A DNA stretch of 64,000 bases from Candidatus Omnitrophota bacterium (GCA_018062515.1 JAGOSC010000002.1:20807-84806), one strand, 5' to 3'; positions 14,253-50,106 are shown, counted from the first letter of the stretch. Numbers and translations: made by a program. The notes: generated by a model from the letters alone, not told the origin.

Positions 14253-15396
14253 AACAGCAAAAGATCCGCAAACATATCACGGCATGAAATATCGGCTTTT
14301 TTTTGCCGGTTTTTTTCTGGATACCATTTTGTTTTTGTTTTTGCTCTATAGTGGAATGACCTTTAGCATTAAACATTCCGCCCATTCCATAGTCAATCAA
14401 GTCTCCGTCGGGAATGCATTTTACGTTGCCTGCTTAAGTATCTTTTTGTATATCATTCACTTTCCGTTAGGTTATTTTAATGGATTTGTTTGGGAACATA
14501 GACATGGATTGTCCAACCAAACATTTGGACAATGGATAAAGGATGACCTTAAGAAATTTGTTTTGGGACTGGTTCTCTCGACGATCTTAGTGTGCGCGAT
14601 TTATTGGTTCTTAGGGCGGATGGGCGGCGCGTGGTGGTTGATGGCCGGAACTTTTTGGCTATTTTTAAGTGTCGTGTTAGCTAAATTAATGCCGAATGTC
14701 ATTGTGCCATTATTTTACAAATATAAGAATATCGACGATGAATTGTTGAAACATAGCATTCACGAAATGTTTAATCATTGCCGTACAACTCTTAAAGATA
14801 TTTACGCTATTGATTTTTCAAGTAAGACAAAAAAGGCCAATGCGTTTATCTGCGGGCTGGGAAAATCCCGTCGAGTTGTCCTGAGTGACACATTGCTCTC
14901 GGAATTTGATAAGGAAGAAATTGAAGCCGTGGTGGCGCACGAATTAGGACATTATTGTCATCGCGATATTGTTAAAATGCTGGCCGTGAACGCGGTTTTG
15001 ATTTTTTCAGGATTATATATCATCGATAAGGTTTTAAAGGGCGCGGTCAATTACTTTGGTTTTGATGGAATGAATGATATAGCCTCCTTGCCGCTTTTTA
15101 TTCTGGTTTTTTCTTTATTAGGCATTATTGTTACTCCGTTAACCAATTGGTATAGTTGTCGCATGGAGAAATCAGCCGACGAGTTTAGCTTAAAACTAAC
15201 AGATAAGCCCGGCGCTTTTATCAGTATGATGGAAAAATTAGGACAGATGAATTTGTCAGAATTTCAGCCGAATAAATTTATCGAAATATTTTTTTATGAT
15301 CACCCGCCCCTTCAACAGCGGATTAATTTTGCCAGAAATTTTAAAAAGGATAATGAACATGACCGAAGCAAAATCAGAAAAAAGAAAATATCTTAG
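14245..15396 (+). CDS. M48-family (Ste24/HtpX-like) membrane zinc metalloprotease
   Basis: Several N-terminal transmembrane segments and the HELGHY zinc-binding motif (VAHELGHYCHRD). Confidence 0.75.
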   Translation: MHKTAKDPQTYHGMKYRLFFAGFFLDTILFLFLLYSGMTFSIKHSAHSIVNQVSVGNAFYVACLSIFLYIIHFPLGYFNGFVWEHRHGLSNQTFGQWIKDDLKKFVLGLVLSTILVCAIYWFLGRMGGAWWLMAGTFWLFLSVVLAKLMPNVIVPLFYKYKNIDDELLKHSIHEMFNHCRTTLKDIYAIDFSSKTKKANAFICGLGKSRRVVLSDTLLSEFDKEEIEAVVAHELGHYCHRDIVKMLAVNAVLIFSGLYIIDKVLKGAVNYFGFDGMNDIASLPLFILVFSLLGIIVTPLTNWYSCRMEKSADEFSLKLTDKPGAFISMMEKLGQMNLSEFQPNKFIEIFFYDHPPLQQRINFARNFKKDNEHDRSKIRKKKIS

Positions 15397-15829
15397 AACC
15401 GCTAAAAAAGTCCCGATGGATTTCTCGCCGGTGGATCATCAGGAAATACTTCTTCCCGGTGTGGGTTGGCAGAAGGGACAAACCGTTAATGTCAGCCAAG
15501 GCGGTGTCTGTGTCGAAACGGAAACCTTAAATGAATCCGTGATTAGATATTTGAATCAACAGCAAATTTTGCTGGCTTTAAAGTTTCATATTCCGTTTTA
15601 TAAAAAAACGGTGCATGCGATAGGGAACGTCGCGTGGTATGAAAAAGAAGAAACCTCCATAGGCATACGTTATACATTAGGAATCAAGTATCGTTCGATA
15701 AAACCCGTCGACGTTCAGGTTCTTCTTCGGCAAACAGCGATTTTTAAATTTTTTCTTTATATTGTTTTTATTTTGACCACCCTTTTCGTCGGAAGTTTGA
15801 TGTATTATTTCTTAATCAGCGCACGTTAG
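15353..15829 (+). CDS. PilZ-domain protein with C-terminal transmembrane segment
   Basis: RKYLR (RxxxR) and NVSQGG (D/NxSxGG) c-di-GMP-binding motifs. An internal ATG was chosen to limit overlap with the upstream gene. Confidence 0.55.
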   Translation: MNMTEAKSEKRKYLRTAKKVPMDFSPVDHQEILLPGVGWQKGQTVNVSQGGVCVETETLNESVIRYLNQQQILLALKFHIPFYKKTVHAIGNVAWYEKEETSIGIRYTLGIKYRSIKPVDVQVLLRQTAIFKFFLYIVFILTTLFVGSLMYYFLISAR

Positions 15830-30893: not shown

Positions 30894-31135
30894 TGTTTAT
30901 TGAAAGGGTTAGAGTTATGAATAGCAAAATTATTCGAGTATAACATTTCTGATATTTATGTTCAATTCCAATATTTCCGTGATAAAGTAATTTTGTAAAT
31001 CAATGGGGCATATGTTATGCTTTATTACTAGAACGGAATTTATGCAGAGGGTAAACCATCTGAGAAGTTGGGGCACAAAGCTAAAGGGTCTTGGTTGTTT
31101 CGAGATAGCCAGCTGCACGCATAATAATTACGGTT

Positions 31136-31173
31136 AAGCCTATTCTTCTCATAAAAAGAATAGGTTTTTTTTT
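31136..31173 (+). terminator. intrinsic-terminator-like hairpin (9-12-bp stem, 8-nt loop, T9) only 25 nt upstream of the next + strand gene
   Basis: cctattctt [ctcataaa] aagaatagg followed by ttttttttt (31139-31173). No + strand CDS lies upstream of it. Confidence 0.5.
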
Positions 31174-31198
31174 GAACTCATAAAAGGGCAGGAACAGG

Positions 31199-32332
31199 AT
31201 GAATCAGGCGAGAATCGCAATTTTTGTAATCTCCATAATGGCGATACCCGTTTTTGCTTTGGCAGAAACATTGACCATGACAACGTATTATCCTTCCCCT
31301 TTTGGTGTCTATCAATCATTAAGGTTGGCTCCCAACGCTTCAGCGCCAGCTTGCAGCGGTTCGACGACCGGAACGATGTATGTAGATACGTCAAATATAT
31401 TACAATATTGCGATGGAACATCCTATTCAACTATCGGTGAATGGATTTTAAGTGGAACGGATCTTTATCCTCGATCTTATGAGGATGCGAATGTCGGGAT
31501 AGGAACCAACGAACCAGATGCGAAATTGCACATATTTAGTGATACTGACCCAACCGCTATCCGAATACAAACTGGTCTTTTGCCTTCCTGGGAATTACAA
31601 GCTAATGACACAAATCCTCAGAAAGGATTTTCTATTTGGAGTGAATCTGTAGGAACGGTTTTGTCCATTTTACCCGCATCTGGAGGACTGGTTGGTATTC
31701 AAACAACCACACCTTCATCGGCATTGGAAGTGAATGGAGATATTGAATTAGAAGACAATTTGATTTTTAACGGAGTAACTCCAATGATTTCCACAACACA
31801 AGCTGATTTATCTGTAGTCCCGAGCAGTGGCTTTAGCCTTCGGGCCGACCTTAGTGGAAGAGGTCGGTTTTACGTTTATGATGGGGATGTGGGGGATCAT
31901 TTATTAACAGTTGATCAAACGACCAGACGCGTCGGAATCTTGAATGAGGCGCCGACATCGGAATTAGATGTTAATGGGACTGTTACGGCCATCAGCTATT
32001 TGTATGCTTCGGATGCTCGTTTTAAAGAAGATTTTAAACCAGTTTTAGGATTAGACGGCATTATGCAGTTGGAAGGTTTAAGTTATACCTGGAAAGAAAA
32101 TGGCAAACATGATATTGGAATCACCGCCCAGGATGTGGAAAAAGTTTATCCGGAATTGGTGTATACGGATGAAAAGTCCGGTAAAAAATATGTGGAATAC
32201 GGTAATTTAATTGCGCCGATGATCGAGGCCATTAAGGATCAGCAAAAATTAATTGAGTATCAAAACGCAGAAATTGATGCATTAAGGAAAGAATTCCATC
32301 AAATGAAGCATGATATGGATTTTTTGCGTTAA
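31199..32332 (+). CDS. exported tail-fibre-like protein with C-terminal intramolecular-chaperone (peptidase S74) domain
   Basis: Signal peptide; NVGIGTNEPDAKLHI-type tail-fibre repeat; C-terminal SDARFKEDFKPV...LSYTWKE...GITAQDVEKVYPELV pattern of the self-cleaving chaperone of endosialidase/tail-spike. Confidence 0.6.
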   Translation: MNQARIAIFVISIMAIPVFALAETLTMTTYYPSPFGVYQSLRLAPNASAPACSGSTTGTMYVDTSNILQYCDGTSYSTIGEWILSGTDLYPRSYEDANVGIGTNEPDAKLHIFSDTDPTAIRIQTGLLPSWELQANDTNPQKGFSIWSESVGTVLSILPASGGLVGIQTTTPSSALEVNGDIELEDNLIFNGVTPMISTTQADLSVVPSSGFSLRADLSGRGRFYVYDGDVGDHLLTVDQTTRRVGILNEAPTSELDVNGTVTAISYLYASDARFKEDFKPVLGLDGIMQLEGLSYTWKENGKHDIGITAQDVEKVYPELVYTDEKSGKKYVEYGNLIAPMIEAIKDQQKLIEYQNAEIDALRKEFHQMKHDMDFLR

Positions 32333-32349: not shown

Positions 32350-33609
32350 ATGATAAAATATCTTTGGGAAAAAACAATCTTCTTCGTCACAATTATATTG
32401 TTTATGTTTGTTTCAACATCATATGCTGGTCAAGAAACGTGTGAGCGAGGAGAGTCTGGGTGTATTTGTTCATATACGAGAGATGGAAGTTATGTTTGTT
32501 ATAAGACAAAGATAGGAGATTCATGTAATCCTCGCGGGACTTTTGGAAGCGATGGTCAGGACGGCGAAATTGGAATCGGAGCTGATACGGGAAATATTGG
32601 GTCTTCTGAAGGATGTTATTGCGATGACGGTCCAACCGGAAAACAAAATTGCCGTACTTACGGAACGGAAACATCGGGATTTTTACTTGCTCAAGAGGCG
32701 GGACAAGGAAAAGTTCCGGCTTTACGAATAAATTTGACCTATACTTCTGACACGGAACCAAATCGCGGTGAGTTAGAATGTTGGGACATTACTAACGAGA
32801 ATCGTGAAGAATATTTTATCCCGACGGCTTCGCAGGAAGAATGGAATACTTTTAAAGCTAAGGTTTTAGAAAATACTGTGTCTGGTGTAACCATGACTAA
32901 GTGTCCGAGTTGCGGAGATCGGATATGTTCTAATCCCGCCACTTATTGGGGATATATTGAAGGTTGCGGTTCTGATGACAGCATGAATCCATCAGTTGAA
33001 ACCGGCGATCCGATGTGCAATACCGATTGTCATGCTTGTCCTATTGTTTGTGGGGACGGCGTTTGTGCCGCCGGAGCGGAAGATTGTACAGGCGGGATTG
33101 GAGATAATCCATGTGCTGATTGCGGAGCGTGTACCTGCGGAGACGCAGATTTCGATTGTACCGGGCAATGCGGTAAGTGTGCCGATTGTTCTCCCTGCTG
33201 TGAGGACGGAGTCTGTGATGCCACTGAAGATAATACAACTTGCGCGGCGGATTGCCCGGCAACAGGTGTATGCACGGGAGCAGTGCCGATTAATTCAATA
33301 TTATGTCCGGGAGATGATACAGGTTTAACAGCAGATGCGCCTAATTCATCAGTCACGGCTTGTACCCCTGGAACCAAATGTGAATATTTATGTAACGCCA
33401 ATACACAATTTGTTGCAGATGAATGCCGATATTGCGCGGTTGCAACAGGAAAAGGTTGCGATACTGGCGGGGGGGATGATTGTAGTCTTTTAGCTGATTG
33501 TTCCCTTAGTGATGGGTGTCCAGTTTTAGGCTATTGTCGTGTAGATTACACCGGTGACTGCAGCGTTTCTCCGTGCGGAGATTTATATGAATGTCAAATT
33601 TGTCTTTAG
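32350..33609 (+). CDS. exported cysteine-rich repeat protein (~60 Cys; CxDGxC / CGxC modules)
   Basis: Signal peptide (cleavage ~SYA/GQ), then Cys, Gly, Asp and Thr make up most residues. Recurrent CGDGVC, CEDGVC, CADCGAC units. Confidence 0.55.
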   Translation: MIKYLWEKTIFFVTIILFMFVSTSYAGQETCERGESGCICSYTRDGSYVCYKTKIGDSCNPRGTFGSDGQDGEIGIGADTGNIGSSEGCYCDDGPTGKQNCRTYGTETSGFLLAQEAGQGKVPALRINLTYTSDTEPNRGELECWDITNENREEYFIPTASQEEWNTFKAKVLENTVSGVTMTKCPSCGDRICSNPATYWGYIEGCGSDDSMNPSVETGDPMCNTDCHACPIVCGDGVCAAGAEDCTGGIGDNPCADCGACTCGDADFDCTGQCGKCADCSPCCEDGVCDATEDNTTCAADCPATGVCTGAVPINSILCPGDDTGLTADAPNSSVTACTPGTKCEYLCNANTQFVADECRYCAVATGKGCDTGGGDDCSLLADCSLSDGCPVLGYCRVDYTGDCSVSPCGDLYECQICL

Positions 33610-33838: not shown

Positions 33839-35077
33839 ATGCGGAGATTCTCCCAAAAAATAAATTTTAAAAAGGGGCAAAGCATTTTCGAATATGCCCT
33901 TTTGATTTTTTTAGCCCTCGCCGGAGTTTATATTCTGACTCCTTTTGTTGTCCGTTCATGGAACGGAAATATTAAAGGTTGGCAAGATTCAATGACCGAC
34001 TCCTACCAAGAACCCATTGGGGCAGCGCCTCCAAGAGCTACTCATATAGATTGTCAATGTTCTTATCAATGTAATAATCCACCTCCGGGCGGAGACGGCC
34101 TTTGTTGTGGGCATGGCACCTGTGAAGAATATCAAAATGCCATGGTATGGACCTGTAATCATGCTGGTTGTCAGGATCCTCCGGGCGGAGAAGTTAATAG
34201 ATACGATTGTAGTGACGAAAACCCAGGATGTTGCACAACACCGGTTAAATTGAAGGTGCCGGATTACTGTGGTGAAACTCCGTGTTTGCCTGAGGAAGTA
34301 CCGGCCGGATATTTTTGTGGAGGGGATCCGCACACGCCACCTAATCCATGGGAAAGATACGTCTGTGAACCTGATCCGAGCTGCGTATATCAATGTGATC
34401 CACAATCCCCCGCGCCATGTGTTTTTCCTTTGCCTTGTGCTACACCGAAGGTAGGATATCATAATGATATTTGCCGAAATGACAATTTAAATTTACCGGG
34501 TCCGGACGATACGTTAATGACCTTCGTTGAAAGAGGCAAATGTAGCAGTCCGTCAGAGTATCCAAAATGTGAATGGGAATGTGAGCTACCGTATCACCCT
34601 GATAGAATGCATACTGAATGTAAATGTCCACCAGGATCTTGGGATCCGCCAGACCCTCCTCCTCCCGCTCCTCCTGTAGTTGAATGTGTCATGGATTGCG
34701 GTGCAGGCGCTTTAGATGGCTCTTGCGATCCAAGGACGCCCGGTCTGGGCGAACCAACCCGCTGTGAAGATTTAACATCGTTTCAAGCTTGTCAAGCCTA
34801 TAGAGGCGTATGTTCTTGGGACTCTTCAGCAAGTCCTGCAACATGTGAAACAGTCCTGACTTGTTCGGATTTGCGAACAAATGTGACATTAACACAGCCT
34901 GACCCGGCAATTTACGCTCAATTTACCCGTTGTGATTCTATTCCATGGTGTGGGTGGACCGGTCCAGGTGGCGGATACTGTTGTCCAGCGGTTTTATCAG
35001 TCGATTGTCCTACTGGTGAGGCGCAAAAAGGATCATGCCCGGCAGGTGAAGTTGTGAGATGTTGTGAAGAGCTCTAG
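33839..35077 (+). CDS. Flp/TadE-type (class III leader) protein with large Cys/Pro-rich extracellular domain
   Basis: N-terminus KKGQSIFEYALLIFLALAGV fits the G/XXXXEY prepilin-peptidase motif followed by a hydrophobic helix. The remaining ~370 aa has ~50 Cys and PP(P) runs. Confidence 0.55.
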   Translation: MRRFSQKINFKKGQSIFEYALLIFLALAGVYILTPFVVRSWNGNIKGWQDSMTDSYQEPIGAAPPRATHIDCQCSYQCNNPPPGGDGLCCGHGTCEEYQNAMVWTCNHAGCQDPPGGEVNRYDCSDENPGCCTTPVKLKVPDYCGETPCLPEEVPAGYFCGGDPHTPPNPWERYVCEPDPSCVYQCDPQSPAPCVFPLPCATPKVGYHNDICRNDNLNLPGPDDTLMTFVERGKCSSPSEYPKCEWECELPYHPDRMHTECKCPPGSWDPPDPPPPAPPVVECVMDCGAGALDGSCDPRTPGLGEPTRCEDLTSFQACQAYRGVCSWDSSASPATCETVLTCSDLRTNVTLTQPDPAIYAQFTRCDSIPWCGWTGPGGGYCCPAVLSVDCPTGEAQKGSCPAGEVVRCCEEL

Positions 35078-35118
35078 TTCATTAATCTGTTATATTAAAT
35101 TTTATGGGGAGGCTAATT

Positions 35119-35535
35119 ATGGCCGTTAGGAATTTTAAAATCCTATTTCTTCTTTTTCTCGTAACAAATATTCTTATTGTGGGTTTAAATTTTTTGAACA
35201 TAAACTCTAAAGAAGAAGTTGACGCCCAATGTATAAAAGTTTTACAAGGATATCCACCAATTGAGAATATAGATGCCTGGGATAGTAGTGGGGCTTGCGA
35301 TTCACGAGCTGGATGGGACTCCTCTAAAAAATATTCTTTATGCGTTTTATCCAAAGTGGAACATCAGGATGATAGTGGTGATGATTGTAGTGAAGACACT
35401 GGAAATTTTAGTAGATGTGAACTTTCGAGAATTGGGCCGCTTAGTTCAGATGGTAGAGATTTTTGGCATATACAGGCCTCACGACATCCTGCGTGCAATA
35501 GTTGTATACGATGCCAGGCATTATGTATAAACTAA
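35119..35535 (+). CDS. small exported Cys-protein, paralog 1 of 3
   Basis: GGGGAGG Shine-Dalgarno sequence 6 nt before the ATG at 35119. Hydrophobic N-segment, then EVDAQC, HQDD, and a C-terminal CIRCQALC. Confidence 0.5.
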   Translation: MAVRNFKILFLLFLVTNILIVGLNFLNINSKEEVDAQCIKVLQGYPPIENIDAWDSSGACDSRAGWDSSKKYSLCVLSKVEHQDDSGDDCSEDTGNFSRCELSRIGPLSSDGRDFWHIQASRHPACNSCIRCQALCIN

Positions 35536-35559
35536 ATATTTTCTATTAGGAGATTTGCT

Positions 35560-35934
35560 ATGACCGTCAACAACATTAAAACACCAATGATTCTTTTTTT
35601 TCTATTTAATATTCTTGTATTAGCCTTTAATTTCTTTATTAGTCAATCCAGCGATAAAGTTAACGCTCAACCGGTATGTGAGCAAGTTTTAACCCATTTA
35701 TCTGAGGGATTGAGTACATGTTTCCAGAAAAACGCGAGTTGTGGCCTTCAAACAGATATAACAACTGGGAGTCCGGCCTTTTGTTTTTTGACAAGAGTGT
35801 ATCAACAGGATTCTGCTAGGGATGATCTGTCGTCTTGTTTGCTGCAAAAGCGGACTCAGGATAATGAATGGCAATTGGACTCAATAGCAAACAATAATAA
35901 TAGGGTTGCATGCGAGGCTCAGTGCATAAAATAA
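35560..35934 (+). CDS. small exported Cys-protein, paralog 2 of 3
   Basis: AGGAG Shine-Dalgarno sequence. Same architecture: hydrophobic N-segment, KVNAQPVC, QQDSARDD, C-terminal CEAQC. Confidence 0.5.
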   Translation: MTVNNIKTPMILFFLFNILVLAFNFFISQSSDKVNAQPVCEQVLTHLSEGLSTCFQKNASCGLQTDITTGSPAFCFLTRVYQQDSARDDLSSCLLQKRTQDNEWQLDSIANNNNRVACEAQCIK

Positions 35935-35960
35935 AAATTTGAAATATGAAGGAAGTTAAT

Positions 35961-36344
35961 ATGTCTATCAAAAATAGAAAAAAATTATACATATTCTTTT
36001 TGGTATTTAATATTTTTATAGTTAGCCTGAATTTTTTCTTAATAAGATCAAAAGATGAGGTTAACGCGCAATGTATGTCGCCAATTCTGGGAATTCCAAC
36101 ACAAACTCTAGAGGCCACGCAAGGTAATACTTGTGCTTCAACTGGGGATCAGCATTCAACACTGCCTGCGACGTTGTGTTATCTGACTTTAGTAGAACAT
36201 CAGGATGATAAAACTCGGACGGACAATTTGGCTGAATGTCATGTTTATCAGAACGGAGACCATTGGACTTTACATGCAGGGGGTCCATCATCGGGAAATG
36301 GTACAGAGACTTGTATAAGATGTAAAGCGGAATGTATGAGGTAG
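35961..36344 (+). CDS. small exported Cys-protein, paralog 3 of 3
   Basis: GAAGGAAG before the ATG at 35961. Hydrophobic N-segment, EVNAQC, VEHQDD, C-terminal CIRCKAEC. Confidence 0.5.
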   Translation: MSIKNRKKLYIFFLVFNIFIVSLNFFLIRSKDEVNAQCMSPILGIPTQTLEATQGNTCASTGDQHSTLPATLCYLTLVEHQDDKTRTDNLAECHVYQNGDHWTLHAGGPSSGNGTETCIRCKAECMR

Positions 36345-36646: not shown

Positions 36647-36973
36647 ATGAATAGAGAATTAAACAAACGAAAAAATAAGAGACTGAATTGCGAAGTCCCT
36701 GTAGAAAGTAAAGAGGGGGCTATTTTTGATGCGAGCAGTGTCGTCGATATCAGTCAAGGCGGTTTAGGATTTGTTTCTGCCCGCCGTATTCCTGTCAATA
36801 AACGAATTCCCATTGAAATTGATTTAAAAGAAGATGATGATTCTGTTCTGGTGATCGGCCGCGTTTTATATTCCAAATTAATTTCAGGTTCGTCAAATTA
36901 CCGTATCGGTGTCACATTTGAAAATGTGATGCGCGGTTCTAAAGTACGTCTCCAGCAATATTTTCATAAATAA
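36647..36973 (+). CDS. single-domain PilZ protein
   Basis: RKNKR (RxxxR) and DISQGG (DxSxGG) motifs; 108 aa. Confidence 0.6.
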   Translation: MNRELNKRKNKRLNCEVPVESKEGAIFDASSVVDISQGGLGFVSARRIPVNKRIPIEIDLKEDDDSVLVIGRVLYSKLISGSSNYRIGVTFENVMRGSKVRLQQYFHK

Positions 36974-36980
36974 TATATCT

Positions 36981-37334
36981 ATGTTTGAAGAAATCCGAAA
37001 AGATGACCGGCGTTTATTCGACCGATTTTCTGCCCGTTACCCGGCGAAATTCAAGGACGAGCGCGAATCATTCGGAGAAAATGTGCAGTTATGTGACGCA
37101 TCCGCCTTCGGAGCGCAATTTTCCTCAAGAGACAGACTGTTTTTAAATGACAAAATTGCTTTGGAAGTAGAATTGCCGGATGGTTTGGCGCCGATGGATT
37201 TACGCGGCGAAGTGGTTTGGATCAGAAAAAATGCAGCGAATTCTTGGAATATCGGTTTGAAATTTTATCAAGTTGAGCTTCTTCGAATGGCCCGCCTCTA
37301 TAAATTCCAATCCCAAACATTATCTTCATCATAA
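36981..37334 (+). CDS. single-domain PilZ protein
   Basis: RKDDRRLFDR and DASAFGAQF motifs; 117 aa, tandem with the previous gene. Confidence 0.55.
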   Translation: MFEEIRKDDRRLFDRFSARYPAKFKDERESFGENVQLCDASAFGAQFSSRDRLFLNDKIALEVELPDGLAPMDLRGEVVWIRKNAANSWNIGLKFYQVELLRMARLYKFQSQTLSSS

Positions 37335-37438: not shown

Positions 37439-40135
37439 ATGTCCCATCCTTTGTACCGCTATAATGATGACCAGATTTCGTTTAAATCTGACAAAGCCGG
37501 TTTCAACCGTACGATGTATTTTCCCTTGTGCGGCCCGACATCTAATCACCTAAAATCTTCCATAACTGCCTATTTATCAGGCGATATTAAGCTCGATAAA
37601 AACCGCTATTTAACCAAACCTGTTTCCACGGAAGACTTGCGTCAGCCTCTACGTAATGTTTATCTTCAAATCGACAAAAACATTTTTAGTTTAGCTAATC
37701 CTCAGGATGATCCAAAGACCATTAACGTTGAGGCCGGCCCATTGTGGCATAAAGTCGTTAAACTTGATCCTCAATCTGAAATTGCTATTGAAGCTTTAAA
37801 TTTTATGCCTGTCAGCGGCGAGAATGCGGAATTAATGCGTGTGACAATCACAAATCATTCTTCTATCGTTAAAACAATGACGCCAACGGTCGCAATACCT
37901 TTATTTGCCCGCGCCTTGGAAAATAAACATGATCATGAACATGTGACGAGTTTACTTAACCGTATAAAACAAACCGAACATGGCGTTATGGTTTCTCCGA
38001 CGATGAAATTTGATGAACAAGGTCATAAGCCCAACAAAGACGTCTATTTTGTTTTTGGCATTGAAGATAATGGCCAGCGTATCAAAGGTTCTTTTCCGAC
38101 GGTAGAAACATTTTGTGGTTTGGTGGGCGATTTTAATCAGCCCGACGCTGTAATCACAAATAAAGAACCGGAAGATCTGCATGGGGATGATTTGCAAGGC
38201 CAAGAAGCGGTCGGCGCGCTGCGGTTTTACGATCTCACCTTAAATCCGAAAGAATCCAAAACGTATTTTATCGTGATTGGAATCGCCGGGAATGAAAAAC
38301 AAGCTGAAGAGGTATTTAATCGTTTTAAATTTAGTGAACAATTCAATCATGCGTTTACAGAAAATAATGCATTTTGGCTGAAAAAAACGGATTCCATCAT
38401 TGTCGACACACAGAATAAAGATTTTAACGCATGGATGCGTTGGGTCACCATTCAGCCGGTATTAAGAAGAATTTTCGGTTGTTCATTTCTTCCGGATCAT
38501 GATTACGGAAAAGGCGGAAAAGGCTGGCGCGATATTTGGCAGGATTTATTATCTTTAATTCTCATCGAACCGGAACAAGTGAAAGAGGCTTTACTGAATA
38601 ATTTTGCCGGTATTCGCATGGACGGCTCTAATGCGACGATCATTGGTTCGAATCCCGGAGAATTTATCGCTGATCGGAATGCCATATCCCGAGTGTGGAT
38701 GGATCATGGTGTTTGGCCGCTCATGACCTTGTTTCTTTATATTCATCAAACCGGTGATTTTGACATTTTATTGGCCGATAATACGTATTTTAAAGATCGG
38801 CAATTATCGAGAAATTATCGACGGGACAGTGCGGAATCCATTGATGAGGGCAATAAGTTAAAAGACATTCATAATAAAATTTATAAGGGAACGATTATTG
38901 AGCATCTTTTGGTTCAGCATCTTGTTCAGTTTTTTAATGTCGGTGAACACAATATTATTCGTCTGGAAAATGCCGATTGGAATGACGGTTTGGATATGGC
39001 CTTTCAGCGTGGAGAAAGTGTCGCGTTTACGTGTCAGTATGCGGGAAACATGTTTCAGTTGGCAACGATGCTGGAACAATTATCGACGAGATTACAGGTG
39101 CAGGAATTATCTTTAGCCAAAGAGCTAGCGATATTAATGGATACGATCAATCAACCGATTGATTATTCCAAGGTTCAAGCCAAAAAGACATTACTGTTTG
39201 ATCAATATTTTAAATCCGTCGAACCGAAACTTTCCGGAGAGAAAATCAGTCTTAACATACAAGACATTGTCAGTGATTTGCGTAAAAAAGGCCAATGGAT
39301 TTTTGATCATATCCGTCGGCAAGAGAAGATAACGGTTTCCAATCAAACTTGGTTTAATGGGTACTACGATAATAATGGGAAGCAAGTAGAAGGCCAAATC
39401 GGAAAAACGATTCGGATGACTTTGACCGGACAAGTCTTCGCGGTCATGAGCGGTTTGGCTCAAAAAGATGAAATCAAACAAGTGATCGCGGCGGCGGAAC
39501 AGTTTCTTAAAGATGAAAAGCTCGGCGGATATCGTCTCAATTCCGATTTTAAAGTTCCTCATTATCTTGAATTAGGCCGGGCATTCGGTTTTGCTTTTGG
39601 AACCAAAGAAAACGGCGCTTTTTTCAGTCACATGATTGTGATGTACGCGTTTGCTTTATATAAACAAGGTTTTGCCCGGGAAGGCTATGGGATTTTGCAA
39701 TCCATTTTCAAAATGGCGATGGACACGGACAAAAGCTGGATTTATCCCGGAATTCCTGAATATTTTGATTCCCATGGCCGGGGAAAATATCATTATTTAA
39801 CCGGATCGGCGAGTTGGCTGGTCTTAACTGTTTTAAATCAAATGTTTGGTATAGCCGGATATAATGGTCAGCTCATGTTAGCTCCGAAATTAGTCAAAGA
39901 ACAATTTGGTTCGGATGGAAAAGTCTCGATTCAATGTTATTTTGCCGGAAAGAGATTAAATATTACTTATATAAATTTAACTTTAAAGGATTATGGTCAA
40001 TACAAAGTCAAAGAAGTTGAATTCAATGGCCGTCCATTAACGTCCGTCCAGAATGAATTATCAGAATTTCTTCTCGAGCGTTCGTGGATTGAGAAATCGG
40101 CGGATGAAATAAATCTGGCGGTTAAATTAGGTTAA
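37439..40135 (+). CDS. large glycoside hydrolase / glycoside phosphorylase-like enzyme ((alpha/alpha)6-barrel type, GH94/GH15-like; family uncertain)
   Basis: 898 aa, cytoplasmic (no signal peptide). Segments such as WNDGLDMA and a long helical-repeat region are reminiscent of glucoamylase-like or cellobiose-phosphorylase-like catalytic domains (memory-based only). It heads a sugar ABC-transporter operon. Confidence 0.35.
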   Translation: MSHPLYRYNDDQISFKSDKAGFNRTMYFPLCGPTSNHLKSSITAYLSGDIKLDKNRYLTKPVSTEDLRQPLRNVYLQIDKNIFSLANPQDDPKTINVEAGPLWHKVVKLDPQSEIAIEALNFMPVSGENAELMRVTITNHSSIVKTMTPTVAIPLFARALENKHDHEHVTSLLNRIKQTEHGVMVSPTMKFDEQGHKPNKDVYFVFGIEDNGQRIKGSFPTVETFCGLVGDFNQPDAVITNKEPEDLHGDDLQGQEAVGALRFYDLTLNPKESKTYFIVIGIAGNEKQAEEVFNRFKFSEQFNHAFTENNAFWLKKTDSIIVDTQNKDFNAWMRWVTIQPVLRRIFGCSFLPDHDYGKGGKGWRDIWQDLLSLILIEPEQVKEALLNNFAGIRMDGSNATIIGSNPGEFIADRNAISRVWMDHGVWPLMTLFLYIHQTGDFDILLADNTYFKDRQLSRNYRRDSAESIDEGNKLKDIHNKIYKGTIIEHLLVQHLVQFFNVGEHNIIRLENADWNDGLDMAFQRGESVAFTCQYAGNMFQLATMLEQLSTRLQVQELSLAKELAILMDTINQPIDYSKVQAKKTLLFDQYFKSVEPKLSGEKISLNIQDIVSDLRKKGQWIFDHIRRQEKITVSNQTWFNGYYDNNGKQVEGQIGKTIRMTLTGQVFAVMSGLAQKDEIKQVIAAAEQFLKDEKLGGYRLNSDFKVPHYLELGRAFGFAFGTKENGAFFSHMIVMYAFALYKQGFAREGYGILQSIFKMAMDTDKSWIYPGIPEYFDSHGRGKYHYLTGSASWLVLTVLNQMFGIAGYNGQLMLAPKLVKEQFGSDGKVSIQCYFAGKRLNITYINLTLKDYGQYKVKEVEFNGRPLTSVQNELSEFLLERSWIEKSADEINLAVKLG

Positions 40136-40252
40136 GTAAATTATCCACACCCTACAGCTGGAATATAATTTACTTAATTAAAGGTTTTTGACATTTAATA
40201 TTGAGCGTGATATACTCCTAACTTCAACATTTTCAATATCCTTGGAGCTTAC

Positions 40253-41560
40253 ATGAAAAAACTATCTATTGCGATTCTGCTCATTGTTATGGCAGCCTTT
40301 GGTGTACAAATCATGGGCTGTGCAAAAGTTGAAGATACCAGCAACAAAATTGTTTTATGGCATTGGATGACCGACCGGGATAAAGCCTTTCAAACATTAG
40401 CTGCGAAATATGAACAGTTAACCGGTGTAAAAGTACAAATCCAATTATTCGCCCCGCCAGATACCTATTCCCAAAGAATCACCGCCTCCGCACAAGCCAA
40501 TACCCTTCCTGATATATTCGGAATTCTCGACAAAAAAGAAATTTTTGCGGACTTTATCAAATATAATTTTGTGGCCAACCTAACGGAAGAATTTAATAAA
40601 AATAACAGTGAATGGGAAGCATCGATTTTCCCCAAGGCTTTAGATGTGAACCGTTTTACCGCGGATAATATTTACGGCGTGGAACCCGGAATTTATGGTG
40701 TTCCTATTGATGTCACCAATATACAAATGCTTTACAATAAAAAACTTTTGCAAAAAGCCGGTATCAAGCAACCGCCGCAAACATTCGATGAATTTCTTGA
40801 AGCCATTGATGCTTTAAAACGAGTCGGTGTTCCCGGATTAGTTTCGGGTTGGGGAGAAATTTGGATGACCGACGCTTTTGCCTCCAATTATGCGTTTAAT
40901 ATTATGGGTGAAGAAAAAGTCATGGCGACGTACCGTGGTGATGTTCCATACACGGATAAAGATTGGATCAAAGTTTTAAGCATTTTTAGAACATTGAGTA
41001 AAAAAGGTGCTTTTATTGAAGGGATTGTGACCAAACCGAATAAAGAAGCTGAACAGGATTTTGCCCTTGAGCGGGCAGCTTTTGCTTATAACGGTTCGTG
41101 GTGTGTCAATGTTTATAGCGGGATGAATCCGGATTTGGAATATAGCGCCATGCTTCCTCCGTCGATTAATTCGAAATCACCGATGAAAATTTGGGGAGGC
41201 GCCGGATCTTCTTTTGTCGTTAACAATAATTCGAAAAACAAAGATAAGGCCATTGCCTTTTTGAAATGGCTCTCTGCGGAAGAACAACAAACTTATCTGG
41301 CCACAGAAACTAAGAATCTTCCATCAAATCAAAAAGCCTTAGCGTCCATTCCTGAAATACTTTCTGATTTCGCCAAGGTCATGGAAAATACCACTCATCC
41401 GACGATATGGAAATATAATGAATTGCCGGCGGTGACCGAAGCGTTTGATAAAGGTATTCAATCTATTATTATCGGTGAAAAAACTCCGGAAGATGTAGCT
41501 AAGGAAGTTCAGCAAGTCAAAACTCGTGAAATGGAAAAAGCGGCCAAGAAAGCTAAATAA
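40253..41560 (+). CDS. sugar ABC transporter substrate-binding lipoprotein (solute-binding family 1)
   Basis: Lipobox IMGC and a family-1 SBP pattern; 435 aa. Confidence 0.75.
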   Translation: MKKLSIAILLIVMAAFGVQIMGCAKVEDTSNKIVLWHWMTDRDKAFQTLAAKYEQLTGVKVQIQLFAPPDTYSQRITASAQANTLPDIFGILDKKEIFADFIKYNFVANLTEEFNKNNSEWEASIFPKALDVNRFTADNIYGVEPGIYGVPIDVTNIQMLYNKKLLQKAGIKQPPQTFDEFLEAIDALKRVGVPGLVSGWGEIWMTDAFASNYAFNIMGEEKVMATYRGDVPYTDKDWIKVLSIFRTLSKKGAFIEGIVTKPNKEAEQDFALERAAFAYNGSWCVNVYSGMNPDLEYSAMLPPSINSKSPMKIWGGAGSSFVVNNNSKNKDKAIAFLKWLSAEEQQTYLATETKNLPSNQKALASIPEILSDFAKVMENTTHPTIWKYNELPAVTEAFDKGIQSIIIGEKTPEDVAKEVQQVKTREMEKAAKKAK

Positions 41561-41564
41561 AATT

Positions 41565-42491
41565 ATGGCTCAATCAGCGACGGTCAAGACAATCAATTAC
41601 GAAAAATTAAAAAACACCTCTGAGAATTATATTTTTATTATTCCCGCCGTTATTATTTTTTCCATTTTTTATATTTATCCATTTATTGATATTATTATCC
41701 TTTCTTTACATGAATGGAAAGGAATAGGCCCAAAGACGTTTGTCGGTCTACAGAATTTTAAAGAACTCATAGGCGACAAAATCTGGTGGAAGTCCATTTG
41801 GAATGCCACCTACATCACTTTGTGGGCTCTGACATTTCAGAATGTTTTGGCTTTTATGCTCGCCTTGGCATGCGACCGTGAAATTCGTTTTAAGAAATTT
41901 TATCGTGTTGTTTTTTTTATTCCGCCAGTATTGTCGCAAGTCGTCGTCGGACTCATTTGGCGATGGATTCTATATTCAGGAACTCAAAATGGGCAAGAAA
42001 TTGGTCTGTTGAATTATTTTCTCGATTATGTCGGGTTGAATCATTTAGTGAATAATTGGTTGTCTAATCCAGAGACTGCTTTGACCTCTATTGCGATTGT
42101 GCATTGTTGGCAAGGATTTGGTTGGGGCTTTATTATGCTTTTGGCCGGACTGCAGACAATTGACAAGCAGTTATACGAATCAGCTAAGGTCGACGGGGCT
42201 GATAATTGGTCGACGTTTTGGAATGTCACTATTCCGATGATGGTTCCGGTTATCTTGGTGGTGGTGATTTTGACGGTTTTAGGAGCGATGCAGGCTTTCA
42301 TTTTGGTTTTATCCATGGTCAGTCAAGGGCTCGTGTATCACACGGAAGTTCCGGTGACGCGTATTTTGGCGGCCATGCAGGGGACAAAACAATTTGGTTA
42401 TGCCTGTGCTATGGGTATTAATTTTGCGATGATATTGATTTCCGTATCCGCGGTCATGAAATTAATTTCAAATAAGGCGCAACAAGCGTAA
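41565..42491 (+). CDS. sugar ABC transporter permease (MalF/UgpA-like)
   Basis: 6 transmembrane segments and the EAA-like loop (ESAKVDGADNWSTFWNVTIP). Start taken at the ATG just after the SBP stop. Confidence 0.75.
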   Translation: MAQSATVKTINYEKLKNTSENYIFIIPAVIIFSIFYIYPFIDIIILSLHEWKGIGPKTFVGLQNFKELIGDKIWWKSIWNATYITLWALTFQNVLAFMLALACDREIRFKKFYRVVFFIPPVLSQVVVGLIWRWILYSGTQNGQEIGLLNYFLDYVGLNHLVNNWLSNPETALTSIAIVHCWQGFGWGFIMLLAGLQTIDKQLYESAKVDGADNWSTFWNVTIPMMVPVILVVVILTVLGAMQAFILVLSMVSQGLVYHTEVPVTRILAAMQGTKQFGYACAMGINFAMILISVSAVMKLISNKAQQA

Positions 42492-42499
42492 ATTAAGCG

Positions 42500-43348
42500 A
42501 TGGAAAAAATAAATTTACATTTACTCAAAAGATCGTCGAAATACTTCTGTCTACATTTGTTTTTGATCGTCGTTGCTTTGACATGTTTGTTTCCTCTATT
42601 CTGGATGATTCGTTGTTCATTGATGGATAATCAGACGGTCTTTACTGATAAAGGCATCATTCCGCAGGTCATTAATTTCGGAAATTACCCAGATGCTTGG
42701 ATACAGGGAAATTTCGGAACGTATTTTTTAAATAGTTTGATTTATACAACCTGCGTTGTTTTTGGTATTGTTCTTATTTCTTCACTCGCCGCCTTTGCTT
42801 TTTCACGATTAAAATTCCCCGGAAGAAAATTTTTTTATTATATGTTTGTCATCGCTATGATGATCCCATTGCCCGGAAGTTTCGTTCCACTGTTTGTTCT
42901 TATGAACAAATTACATTTGGCTAATACCAAAATCGGCTATATCCTTTGTATGGTCAACGTGGGATTGTCGCTCAGCATCATTCTCTTAAAAACGTTTTTT
43001 GATAAAATGCCGTCGGACTTAGAAGATGCCGCCCGTATCGACGGATGTAATAAATGGCAAATTTGGTGGAATGTCGCTTTGCCGCTCGCTCGGCCTGCCG
43101 TCGCTGTCATTGTCATTTTTAATTCATTGAATGTTTGGAATGAATTTATTTTAGCCCAACTTTTGTTGAGTGATACAAAACATATGCCTCTTCAGAAAGG
43201 ATTGATGGAGTTTGCCGGCGTGCATAATACGAATTATCCGCTTTTGATGGCGGGTTTGACCATCGCCGCTGTTCCAATCATTCTTTTGTATTTGGCTATG
43301 CAAAAACATATTATTAAAGGACTATCTTCAGGAGCTGTGGTCGGATGA
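42500..43348 (+). CDS. sugar ABC transporter permease (MalG/UgpE-like)
   Basis: EAA loop DAARIDGCNKWQIWWNVALP; 282 aa. Confidence 0.75.
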   Translation: MEKINLHLLKRSSKYFCLHLFLIVVALTCLFPLFWMIRCSLMDNQTVFTDKGIIPQVINFGNYPDAWIQGNFGTYFLNSLIYTTCVVFGIVLISSLAAFAFSRLKFPGRKFFYYMFVIAMMIPLPGSFVPLFVLMNKLHLANTKIGYILCMVNVGLSLSIILLKTFFDKMPSDLEDAARIDGCNKWQIWWNVALPLARPAVAVIVIFNSLNVWNEFILAQLLLSDTKHMPLQKGLMEFAGVHNTNYPLLMAGLTIAAVPIILLYLAMQKHIIKGLSSGAVVG

Positions 43349-45675
43349 TCTCAAAATTTAAAAAATATTCCTCAATTTTTCAATATTCAGTTATTTTTTT
43401 ATGTTTAACGATGGATTGTCCGGTGTATGCACAAGACAATCCAGTTGATGTGACAGATAAGATCGTTAATGAATCTTGGGCCGCATCCAGTCAGCGTCAA
43501 GAGGAAAAGGTTAATGAGCTCGTCGGACAATGTGTTGAACGTTATCAGGAACAGGCTAAGGTACTACAAAATAGTTTAACAGCCTTCCCTAATATGACCG
43601 AAGCCAGAAAATATCAGCCGTTAAATGATATTGGTACGTGTCTTTTCATTCAAGCTGAGTATGTGATGAATTCCGGAAAAAAAGAAGAAGCGATCACCAA
43701 ATTCCAGTCGATTATTGACAATTACAGTTGGGCTCAATCATGGGATCCGAGAACCGGCGCGTTTTGGTCTATCGCCGAGAAAAGTCGTCAAAGTATTGAT
43801 GCGATGTTAGGAAAAGAAGATGTTGAAGTTGATGAAACTAAAGATGTGCTTAGAACGGTTCCGGTTTTGTTCACGAAGGGAACCGAAGACGTCGTCGATT
43901 ATACAAAATATGGACAATTTATGAATGTCGGTACTGAAAATTATATTTATCGCATGACCGATATTGAAGGCTTAAAGAAAGCGGTCGGTGAAGGGATTTA
44001 TCCAAACATCGGTGATATTTACAAAAATCCTGGTTATAAAAAAGCCAAGGCGGAAGGCCGTTTAAACGGCAGTCACTGGGATTTTGTCAATCAGGAAGAT
44101 TTAGAAGCTGCCTATTATAAATGGTTCATCGCGCCGGAACCTTGGGGCGTTCGATTGTTTTATTTAGGTTTTATTTTTGAAAGAGCGGGCATGTACGATG
44201 AGGCGCTCAAGGCTTATCAAGCTTTGGTTGTTCATTACCCAAAAACAATCGGGTACACGTATTGGCAAACACCTTGGTACCCTGGTCAAGCGGCCATTGC
44301 TAAAATCCGGCATATTTTGCGGACTCATCCGGAATTAAATTTGGAAGATGACGGCATGAGGATCATCGTCAAAAAAGGTTTTGATAATGATATTAAGAAC
44401 GATAAGATCATTACCTCGCCGGGAAAAATTTTCAAGAGAAAGACCGGTGCTAAGGCTGATAAACTGTATGCCAAAAGTAAACGAGTTAAATTGGATAAGA
44501 TCGTCGAGACCAAAGGCGATGGAATTGTTCAGTTAGTCAAATTTGATAATGGGCATTGGCAGTTAAGGGTCAATGGAAAGCCATACATAATTAAAGGGAT
44601 TACTTATGATCCGACCAAAATCGGACAATCTCCCGATAAAGGAACGCTTCAGAACTGGATGGAAGAAGATACGAACGGCAACGGCCTTGCCGACGGGCCA
44701 TTTGAGGCTTATGTGGACGCGAATCATAATAATAAGAGAGACGGAAAAGAAAAAGTCGTCGGTGATTTTAAAATCATGAAGGATATGGGCGTAAATACGA
44801 TCCGTTTCTATCACATTCCGACGACGCCGAATAAGGAAGTCCTTCGCAAGCTTTACAAGGATTATGGAATCAGAGTTATTCTCGGTGATTTTCTTGGGAA
44901 ATATGCGATTGGTTCCGGAGCGACATGGGTCGAAGGGACCGATTATGAAAATGAAGAGCATAAGAAAAATATGTTAGAGAAAGTTAAGCAAATGGTCATG
45001 GAACATAAAGATGAACCTTATGTTCTTATGTGGTTATTAGGAAATGAAAATAATTATGGGGTAGCATGCAACGCGGATAAAAAACCAGCAGCATATTTTC
45101 GTTTTGCTGATGAAGTGGCCCAATGGATTAAATCCGTCGACAAAAATCATCCCATCGCTCTCGGAAATGGGGACACTTTATTTTTAGATATTTTTGCTGA
45201 GAATACACCCAACATTGATATATTTGCCGGCAATGTGTATCGCGGAGATTATGGATTTGGATCACTTTGGGAACAAGTATCCGATGCGACTAATAATTCT
45301 AAGCCAGCTTTTATTACAGAATATGGGGCTCCTTCTTTTGCCAAACATTTGAATACCGAACAGGCGGAAAAAGCACAAGCGGATTATCATTTGGGAAATT
45401 GGCAGGACATTTATGAAAATTCCGCCGGTCAAGCTAGGGGTGTAGGAAATTCCATCGGCGGCGTTGCTTTTGAATATTTAGATGAATGGTGGAAAAATTA
45501 TGAACCATTCCGGCATGATAAAAAATCAGACGCTGTAGGGCCATTCCCGGGGGGATATTATTACGAAGAATGGTTTGGATTGGTGGGACAAGGCAATGGA
45601 CAAGACAGCCCATTTTTACGTCAACCACGTAAAAGTTATTATCTTTATAAAGAATTATGGAGTAAGGATAAATAG
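43345..45675 (+). CDS. secreted clan GH-A (TIM-barrel) glycoside hydrolase with an N-terminal ~130-aa domain of unknown function
   Basis: Signal peptide. Acid/base-like LGNENNYG and nucleophile-like ITEYG segments at GH2/GH5-type spacing. The N-terminal domain is shared with the next gene. Confidence 0.5.
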   Translation: MISKFKKYSSIFQYSVIFLCLTMDCPVYAQDNPVDVTDKIVNESWAASSQRQEEKVNELVGQCVERYQEQAKVLQNSLTAFPNMTEARKYQPLNDIGTCLFIQAEYVMNSGKKEEAITKFQSIIDNYSWAQSWDPRTGAFWSIAEKSRQSIDAMLGKEDVEVDETKDVLRTVPVLFTKGTEDVVDYTKYGQFMNVGTENYIYRMTDIEGLKKAVGEGIYPNIGDIYKNPGYKKAKAEGRLNGSHWDFVNQEDLEAAYYKWFIAPEPWGVRLFYLGFIFERAGMYDEALKAYQALVVHYPKTIGYTYWQTPWYPGQAAIAKIRHILRTHPELNLEDDGMRIIVKKGFDNDIKNDKIITSPGKIFKRKTGAKADKLYAKSKRVKLDKIVETKGDGIVQLVKFDNGHWQLRVNGKPYIIKGITYDPTKIGQSPDKGTLQNWMEEDTNGNGLADGPFEAYVDANHNNKRDGKEKVVGDFKIMKDMGVNTIRFYHIPTTPNKEVLRKLYKDYGIRVILGDFLGKYAIGSGATWVEGTDYENEEHKKNMLEKVKQMVMEHKDEPYVLMWLLGNENNYGVACNADKKPAAYFRFADEVAQWIKSVDKNHPIALGNGDTLFLDIFAENTPNIDIFAGNVYRGDYGFGSLWEQVSDATNNSKPAFITEYGAPSFAKHLNTEQAEKAQADYHLGNWQDIYENSAGQARGVGNSIGGVAFEYLDEWWKNYEPFRHDKKSDAVGPFPGGYYYEEWFGLVGQGNGQDSPFLRQPRKSYYLYKELWSKDK

Positions 45676-49089: not shown

Positions 49090-50106
49090 ATGGTCAATGA
49101 AAAAATCAGTATTAATGATGTCGCTAAACTAGCCAAAGTTTCCGTGACGACCGTGTCACGGGTCATCAATAATATTTCCACGGTGTCGGATAAAAACCGT
49201 ACCAAAGTTGAAGAGGCTGTACGGGCATTAAAATATCGTCCCAATGTCAGCGCACAGCGTCTAGCCCGCGGCCATAACAATGCTATCGGTCTTGTTATTC
49301 CCGGATATCCGGGCGTTTTTCATTCCTTTTATGCGATCGAACTGATCCGGGGTATCGGACACGCGTTGGAAGCAGCCAAAATGGATATGGTTTTTCACAT
49401 CACCGACGGGAATAATCCGATTAATACGAATCATGTCGACGGCGTTATTTTCGCCGACATTATTGAGAACCGTAAACAAGTTGAAGCGGCGATTAATATT
49501 GGCACCCCGGTTTTGATTATTAACAATGAAGTTCATGACATCGACGTGAATTATATCGCTATTGATAATACATTGGGCGGTCAGCTCGTCGCGGAATATT
49601 TATTGGGTTTCGGACACAGAAAAATTGCCACCATTACCGGAAAATTAACCACTCAAGCCGGGCAAAATAGATTGAATGGATTTAAAGAATATTTGGAGAA
49701 GAATAATGGCGGCTTGCCGGCGCATTATATTATTGAAGGCGATTATTCACGGCGAAGTGCTCGATTAGCGGCTGAGGAATTTCTTAAAATGAAAGATCGT
49801 CCCACCGCCATTTTTGCGGCCAGTGATGATATGGCTTTAGAAGCTATTGCTTTTTTTCTCGAAAAAGGACTCAAAATTCCTGAAGATATTTCGGTGATTG
49901 GATTCGATGACAATCCAACCTGTCTATTTGGGCCGGTTGCCTTGACAACCGTTCATCAACCGCTGTTTCAAATGGCTGAAGAAGCCGTGAAAATGTTGGT
50001 CAATGCCATTTCCAAAAAGAACCACTCTAAAACAAAGAAAATTCTCATCCCCGAGCTGGTTGTCCGCGAAACCTGCTGTGCTCCTCGTCCCGAGCGGACG
50101 GCTTAA
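49090..50106 (+). CDS. LacI-family transcriptional regulator
   Basis: HTH segment ISINDVAKLAKVSVTTVSRVINN plus a periplasmic-binding-protein-like sugar-binding core. Confidence 0.8.
   Translation: MVNEKISINDVAKLAKVSVTTVSRVINNISTVSDKNRTKVEEAVRALKYRPNVSAQRLARGHNNAIGLVIPGYPGVFHSFYAIELIRGIGHALEAAKMDMVFHITDGNNPINTNHVDGVIFADIIENRKQVEAAINIGTPVLIINNEVHDIDVNYIAIDNTLGGQLVAEYLLGFGHRKIATITGKLTTQAGQNRLNGFKEYLEKNNGGLPAHYIIEGDYSRRSARLAAEEFLKMKDRPTAIFAASDDMALEAIAFFLEKGLKIPEDISVIGFDDNPTCLFGPVALTTVHQPLFQMAEEAVKMLVNAISKKNHSKTKKILIPELVVRETCCAPRPERTA

Follow-up and report, generated by a model that had tools for sequence, protein, structure and literature searches.

Three tandem genes for small, putatively exported cysteine-rich proteins with a predicted lectin-like fold in a Candidatus Omnitrophota gene cluster

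The triplet and its relatives

Three adjacent genes, here called copies A, B and C, lie on the plus strand of a 64-kb window from a Candidatus Omnitrophota metagenome-assembled genome (MAG), the window being the whole stretch of DNA analyzed and all coordinates being counted from its first letter. Copy A (35119..35535, +), which is part of an open reading frame (ORF) open from 35104, encodes 138 amino acids (aa) with 9 Cys, comprising a leader helix, the sequence VDA/Q-C and an acidic domain predicted to form a beta-sandwich. Copy B (35560..35934, +) encodes 124 aa with 7 Cys and is the most divergent of the three, while copy C (35961..36344, +; ORF open from 35946) encodes 127 aa, also with 7 Cys. 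The genes are separated by 24 nt (A to B) and 26 nt (B to C), and each start codon is preceded by a Shine-Dalgarno sequence: GGGGAGG before 35119, AGGAG before 35560 and GAAGGAAG before 35961. A preliminary description, made from the DNA sequence alone, had delineated the same three genes with these lengths and Shine-Dalgarno-supported starts, and the three hydrophobic segments that it quoted were read here exactly as given.

Copies A, B and C are genuine, old tandem paralogues. Aligned over their full length, the proteins share 29 to 40% identity, with pairwise BLASTP E values of 3e-25 (A-C), 8e-15 (B-C) and 8e-10 (A-B). Since the parts without the leader still align (E values of 1e-13, 9e-5 and 2e-3, respectively), the similarity exceeds chance, in agreement with the preliminary description, and does not come from the hydrophobic leader alone. 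At the DNA level, likeness among the copies is confined to short stretches, and so little remains that the duplications must be old. The motifs described as common to all three hold for copies A and C, but copy B departs from them in three places: (i) it reads SSDKVNAQPVC instead of S.(E/D)EV.AQ-C, (ii) it reads YQQDS instead of HQDD, and (iii) its C terminus, RVACEAQC, retains only C-E-A-Q-C, the first Cys of CxxCxAxC being missing.

The triplet is easily overlooked, because its genes appear without public protein accessions. Copies A, B and C have no NCBI protein accession, while the neighbors MBP9853366-68 do, and the accession numbers running from the 412-aa gene directly upstream (ending in 368) to mnmG (ending in 380) are three short of the ORF count; this numbering suggests that the triplet is unannotated in GenBank. 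The neighboring proteins MBP9853364-68, 80 and 91 are named Candidatus Omnitrophota bacterium.

The family is very rare, lineage-restricted and uncharacterized. A profile of the triplet searched against 1.84 billion representative proteins, the kind of search that the preliminary description had proposed, gave nine matches in all, of which three were the triplet itself; copy A is exactly identical to P0001. The others were P0004 to P0007, which have the leader in common with the triplet, and P0008 and P0009. The nearest relative of copy A is P0004, with 52% identity; P0005 and P0006 form a tandem pair on a 1.2-kb contig; and P0007 comes from an Omnitrophota MAG, isolate nDJH15bin6. The only family members with a named host are those of two Omnitrophota MAGs, that of the window and that of P0007. 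With the triplet alignment or a widened one as query, word-indexed homology searches returned almost only self matches. A degenerate DNA pattern of 78 nt representing the leader was also scanned across 185,579 species genomes, Joint Genome Institute (JGI) metagenomes and viral contigs: in the species genomes it was found only in the MAG of P0007 and in one chance match in Roseburia, in the JGI metagenomes only in four chance matches (one of them a fungal mitochondrion), and in the viral contigs not at all. Neither the triplet nor its relatives had a match in Pfam (none at E<=1), NCBIfam or PHROG, and a PDB sequence-profile search found no solved relative of the triplet family, so that, as expected from the preliminary description, the proteins match no known characterized family by sequence.

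More distant relatives were nevertheless detected. The triplet-only profile matched P0008 (three repeats, E of 4e-5) and P0009 (a secreted protein of 112 aa, E of 9.5e-4), and a search with the distant members yielded about 13 small (106 to 128 aa) hypothetical secreted proteins, P0009 to P0021, having ordinary AxA signal peptides and exactly 4 Cys each. When a profile of six window-type proteins was compared with one of ten distant proteins using hhalign, the two aligned over 76 columns with 94.6% probability and an E value of 6.9e-8; as the two groups were compared directly, this result is independent of mixed alignments. On the evidence of these profiles, the C-terminal domain of the triplet is homologous to P0009 to P0021. 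The combined alignment has the skeleton C-x-L, acidic loop, C-x-V, W-x-L-x-A and C-x-A-x-C, in which only four Cys (in CxL, CxV and the final CxAxC) are invariant across all relatives. P0009 to P0021 and the P0008 repeats are like the triplet in having C.L[ST].V, the acidic loop, C[RK]V.R, W.L.A and C.A.C. On the other hand, P0009 to P0021 differ from the triplet in their ordinary signal peptides, in their 4 Cys only, in the lack of tandem triplication and in their partner, which is a conserved membrane protein of ~235 aa, whereas the triplet is paired with a protein bearing an Flp-type leader.

Several further features of the distant relatives were recorded. Their acidic loop between CxL and CxV reads FENTDTDGE or FEDIDSNGE, a DxDxDG-like pattern that recalls Ca2+-binding loops; in the window copies the loop (EHQDD...) is less regular. 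P0020, P0010 and P0016 are each followed by the ~235-aa protein, which has an N-terminal transmembrane helix, 40 to 49% mutual identity and no Pfam match (L012, 8344-9057; L014, 3723-4427; L015, 1587-2291; and L016, 3722-4374, apparently frameshifted); the small secreted protein and the ~235-aa protein look like a conserved two-gene unit. P0008 (L013, 317-2584) is a secreted protein of 755 aa in which the domain occurs three times in tandem at the C terminus and for which Pfam gave no match; the segment before its repeats looks Kazal-like (CGCDGNTYDSE...C).

The leader and the predicted fold

Seven proteins bear the leader, namely, copies A, B and C and P0004, P0005, P0006 and P0007. All seven have a basic N terminus followed by a hydrophobic stretch of 19 to 20 residues, and M1, K7, F13, N17 and N24 are invariant among them. 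Mean identity within this set is 49% over residues 1 to 27 compared with 29% over the remainder; a signal peptide that is discarded would not usually be the better-conserved part of a protein. The hydrophobic stretch is followed by a polar spacer and, in all seven, by small residues at positions -3 and -1 (VDA, VNA, AFA or ASA), at a site that aligns with the AxA sites of the distant relatives. With regard to general secretory (Sec) export and signal peptidase I (SPase I) cleavage, the basic n-region and the small -3/-1 residues are thus present in 7/7 proteins, combined with an h-region of 19 to 20 residues and a 10-residue charged or polar spacer before the site. The preliminary description had left prepilin-type cleavage as a possibility beside that by signal peptidase; the prepilin motif was absent in 7/7, there being no Gly(-1)/Glu(+5) pair of a class III (type IV pilin) signal in any leader. 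A scan of the window found no type IV pilin-like leader, and the Flp/TadE-type motif G/XXXXEY occurs only in the 412-aa neighbor and not in copies A, B and C.

Directly after the VxA/AxA site, all seven proteins have an invariant Cys. The residue preceding it is Q, V, Q, Q, L, K or Q; a bacterial lipoprotein was therefore rejected, as a Q, V, L or K before the Cys does not fit the lipobox [LVI][ASTVI][GAS]-C, and a cytochrome was ruled out by the lack of CxxCH. The Cys counts of the seven proteins are all odd (9, 7, 7, 7, 5, 5 and 7), and in P0005 and P0006 the 5 Cys consist of the post-leader Cys and the four core Cys. Since the post-leader Cys has no intramolecular partner in these 5-Cys relatives, it is probably unpaired within the chain, being either free or engaged in an intermolecular disulfide. 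In P0007 the same leader and post-leader Cys precede a different, 7-Cys C-terminal part, so that the leader behaves like a module that can be transferred. The gene for P0007 (L005, 10001-10405, corresponding to L007, 6527-6979, minus strand) stands alone beside a gene for a 2358-aa Cys-free protein. Further copies of the leader or the domain were found neither elsewhere in the window nor in the 412- and 419-aa proteins encoded upstream of the triplet.

The structure of copy C was modeled with AlphaFold2 using a 21-sequence alignment. The model, with a predicted local distance difference test (pLDDT) score of 80, contains a 24-residue helix (residues 6 to 29), a low-confidence linker (pLDDT of ~54) that holds the invariant Cys, and six strands; the model of the distant member P0011 (pLDDT of 84 overall and 89 to 95 over the mature domain) has the same six strands. 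The mature parts are acidic, with isoelectric points (pI) of 4.8 to 5.3. The preliminary description of small exported Cys proteins that combine an N-terminal hydrophobic helix with a disulfide-stabilized C-terminal module appears to be right in this respect. Its comparison with minor pilins or pseudopilins did not hold: in addition to the missing G/E prepilin motif, the model shows no pilin fold, since a short helix, a low-confidence linker and an independent six-stranded sandwich are predicted instead of a helix of ~50 residues packed on a sheet.

Among known structures, the predicted fold is closest to H-type lectins, and it is called here H-type-lectin-like with no family membership assigned. 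Comparison with SLL-2 (3wmp) gave scores of 4.9 and 6.3 with a root mean square deviation (rmsd) of 3.1 to 3.2 Å and 73 and 83 of 94 residues aligned; with Helix pomatia agglutinin (2ccv), the scores were 4.6 and 5.8 and the rmsd 2.9 to 3.0 Å; and with discoidin I (2w94), the scores were 4.6 and 5.9 and the rmsd 15.4 and 5.2 Å. A Foldseek search against the PDB gave no significant match (best E of 0.15). H-type lectins are trimers with ligand sites at the subunit interfaces. The triplet differs from them (2ccv, 3wmp, the C-terminal domain of discoidin I/II, and Pfam H_lectin) in having no detectable sequence similarity, another disulfide pattern (CxL/CxV/CxAxC) and an extra conserved N-terminal hydrophobic leader. 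Similar scores but mostly large rmsd values were obtained with the PCSK9 C-terminal domain, resistin and phage or pyocin fiber tips. The first two are Cys-rich beta-sandwiches of eukaryotic origin with rmsd values of 6 to 12 Å and no sequence similarity, and thus an analogy only; in contrast to phage tail fibers and R-type pyocin tips, the triplet has no fiber shaft, phage context, PHROG match or viral relatives. The C-terminal domain of CofB and TcpB, minor pilins of type IVb systems, is of the same fold class as that predicted for the triplet, whose genes adjoin one for a protein with an Flp-type leader; this H-type lectin domain is used where a type IV-family filament has its tip, is encoded in the pilus operon, and binds a protein partner rather than a sugar (PMC6048534).

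The surrounding gene cluster

The gene directly upstream of the triplet (33839..35077, +) ends 41 nt before copy A and encodes a 412-aa protein with 41 Cys and an Flp/TadE-type leader, KKG/QSIFEYALLI (KKGQSIFEYALLI), the only G-XXXX-EY leader found in the window by a regular-expression scan. The protein has no Pfam or PDB match. From this gene through copy C the intergenic gaps are 24 to 41 nt, and the 412-aa protein is likely to be a co-transcribed partner of the triplet. In locus L003, the sole relative having upstream sequence, a homologue of the C terminus of the 412-aa protein (46% identity, E of 1.5e-23) is encoded directly upstream of P0004. The link between the triplet and the Flp-leader gene at 33839 that had been proposed from the sequence thus finds support in the synteny conserved in this one relative.

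Farther upstream, the product of a gene at 32350..33609 (+) is a secreted protein of 419 aa, of which 48 (11%) are Cys; nothing in Pfam, PHROG or the PDB matched it, and it does not resemble the 412-aa protein. Its position suggests that it may be linked to the triplet. The first gene of the cluster (31199..32332, +) encodes a 377-aa secreted tail-fiber-like protein whose C-terminal domain is an intramolecular chaperone of the Peptidase_S74 family (Pfam E of 3e-15) and which is matched by PHROG tail-fiber families at residues ~250 to 370 only. The cluster is headed by a cyclic di-GMP (c-di-GMP)-I riboswitch aptamer (31040..31121, +; Rfam RF01051, 49.5 bits, the gathering score being 35). Between the aptamer and the start codon at 31199, 15 nt downstream of the former, lies a terminator-like hairpin with a T-run (31136..31175, +); it is a putative expression platform, which would give the element both parts of a riboswitch.

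Directly downstream of the triplet are two genes for single-domain PilZ proteins. In the first (36647..36973, +; Pfam E of 1.5e-11) the RxxxR and DxSxxG motifs are intact as RKNKR and DISQGG, and in the second (36981..37334, +; Pfam E of 3.3e-12) as RLFDR and DASAFG. A third PilZ-domain ORF lies at 15296-15829 (+). The PilZ genes are followed at 37439-45675 (+) by genes for a GH94-type phosphorylase, for a sugar ATP-binding cassette (ABC) transporter made up of two permeases and a binding protein that has a lipobox-like IMGC, and for a GH2/TPR protein. A LacI-type regulator is encoded at 49090. The rest of the window holds housekeeping and sugar-utilization genes.

Possible functions of the triplet

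Our tentative preference, held at slightly less than an even chance, is that the triplet encodes Sec-exported, disulfide-stapled, lectin-like binding modules that are probably oligomeric and probably made together with the Flp-leader protein, within a gene cluster that serves the surface or attachment and is connected with c-di-GMP signaling. The basic N terminus and the hydrophobic helix with its two invariant Asn would carry each protein through Sec across the inner membrane, after which the helix would either stay as a signal anchor or be cut at the conserved VxA/AxA site; the post-leader Cys would probably be left free or form an intermolecular disulfide. The remaining ~90 residues would fold as an acidic (pI of ~5), six-stranded beta-sandwich in which two conserved disulfides, if paired as we propose, staple the C-terminal CxAxC strand to the CxL and CxV strands, with the conserved acidic loop between the latter two. 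Because the fold is closest to H-type lectins, with their trimers and interface ligand sites, the domains may be periplasmic or surface-exposed ligand-binding modules for adhesion or recognition, and probably form oligomers, possibly mixed assemblies of A, B and C. They would be made together with the Cys-rich Flp-leader protein encoded upstream, from a c-di-GMP-linked cluster of genes for surface structures. By the same predicted fold, surface or periplasmic binding modules are more likely than pilins or bacteriocins. The genomic setting also suggests a role at the surface, in view of the Flp-type leader of the 412-aa protein, the recurrence of this pairing in one relative, the riboswitch at the head of the cluster and the two PilZ genes behind it.

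Several observations weigh against this explanation: (i) the triplet lies 4 kb downstream of the riboswitch, and since a gap of 229 nt between the 419- and 412-aa genes sets the latter apart from the genes close to the riboswitch, control of the triplet by c-di-GMP is unproven; (ii) the 64-kb window contains no Tad or type IV pilus machinery; (iii) P0007 sits alone, away from any Flp-leader gene; (iv) the helical periodicity of the conserved leader positions is not significant (permutation P of 0.19), for which reason no conserved helix interface is claimed; (v) no sequence match was found to Pfam H_lectin or to any solved structure, the PDB profile search included; and (vi) as CofB illustrates, an H-type lectin fold need not mean sugar binding, its ligand site being open to repurposing (PMC6048534).

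An unlikely alternative is that the proteins are pilus-dependent secreted partners, analogous to CofJ and TcpF, which would become soluble after SPase I cleavage and, docked on the Flp-leader protein at the tip of a filament, connect it with a target surface. It would account for the conserved SPase-type site and for genes placed, with conserved synteny, immediately downstream of the Flp-leader gene, and it has an operon-level precedent in type IVb systems (PMC6048534). However, a discarded segment would not usually be more conserved than the mature part, the h-region of 19 to 20 residues is long and is separated from the site by 10 polar residues, the searches found neither CofJ nor TcpF to be similar in sequence or fold, and no pilus machinery was seen in the window. 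An elaboration of the preferred reading in terms of binding modules, to which we give only a small chance, is that the Asn-bearing helices and the unpaired post-leader Cys join the proteins into a disulfide-linked homo- or heterotrimeric lectin-like head that, together with the Cys-rich Flp-leader protein, would act as an attachment device of the ultra-small, host-dependent Omnitrophota switched by c-di-GMP. In that case the conserved leader, which in P0007 is joined to an unrelated cargo domain, would not be a generic signal peptide but a new signal for sorting or assembly specific to the lineage.

It is very unlikely that the copies are periplasmic thiol-disulfide helpers, that is, anchored proteins whose unpaired Cys and, in A and C, CxxC would create or rearrange the disulfides of the 41- and 48-Cys proteins. 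The odd Cys counts, the invariant post-leader Cys, the C-I-R-C of copies A and C (C-V-K-C in P0004) and the two extremely Cys-rich exported proteins encoded next to the triplet would all suit such a role, but copy B, P0005 and P0006 have no CxxC, the motif is predicted to lie in a beta-strand of the sandwich and not at the helix N terminus of a thioredoxin fold, and in the distant relatives the four structural Cys are the only ones and Cys-rich neighbors are lacking.

The slimmer prospect of bacteriocin-like toxins, another resemblance raised in the preliminary description, would have the proteins cut from their leader and released onto competitors or a host cell, with three variants widening the target range. 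Although the proteins are small, Cys-rich, tandemly diversified and lineage-restricted, with mature parts that diverge fast, and although Omnitrophota are thought to be predatory or parasitic (PMC10066038), the resemblance was not sustained. No double-glycine leader is present, as also argues against a class II bacteriocin; no immunity gene, ABC exporter or modification enzyme lies nearby, the neighbors being the Cys-rich proteins, the PilZ proteins, the GH94-type phosphorylase and the sugar ABC transporter; no toxin or bacteriocin was among the fold matches; PHROG and viral relatives are lacking; and the acidity of the mature parts is unlike that of most membrane-active peptides. Least probable of all is that the copies are minor pilins or pseudopilins whose helix is a class III signal cut by prepilin peptidase and which are assembled into a Tad or type IV filament that has the 412-aa protein as its head or as another component: this reading is largely refuted at the sequence level by the missing motif (none of the seven leaders has Gly ahead of the hydrophobic stretch, Glu at +5 or EY), and it is also at odds with a helix of 24 rather than ~50 residues that the low-confidence linker separates from the sandwich, with the ordinary AxA signal peptides of the distant relatives and with the lack of a prepilin peptidase or pilus ATPase in the window.

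To conclude, the triplet represents a new and very narrow family on a familiar theme, that of the small secreted binding domain with a predicted beta-sandwich fold, and its C-terminal domain defines an unnamed family of secreted proteins that is a candidate for inclusion in domain databases. If the proteins prove to be ordinary periplasmic ones, the triplet would merely add another orphan family specific to the lineage. Omnitrophota are uncultured, ultra-small and probably host-dependent bacteria, believed to live on other cells, in which attachment structures are prominent and pili and adhesins are considered central to the lifestyle, with nothing known of their attachment beyond pili and giant ORFs (PMC10066038). 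The locus described here, a riboswitch-headed cluster of putatively exported Cys-rich proteins that ends in three predicted lectin-like modules, is a compact candidate for such attachment.
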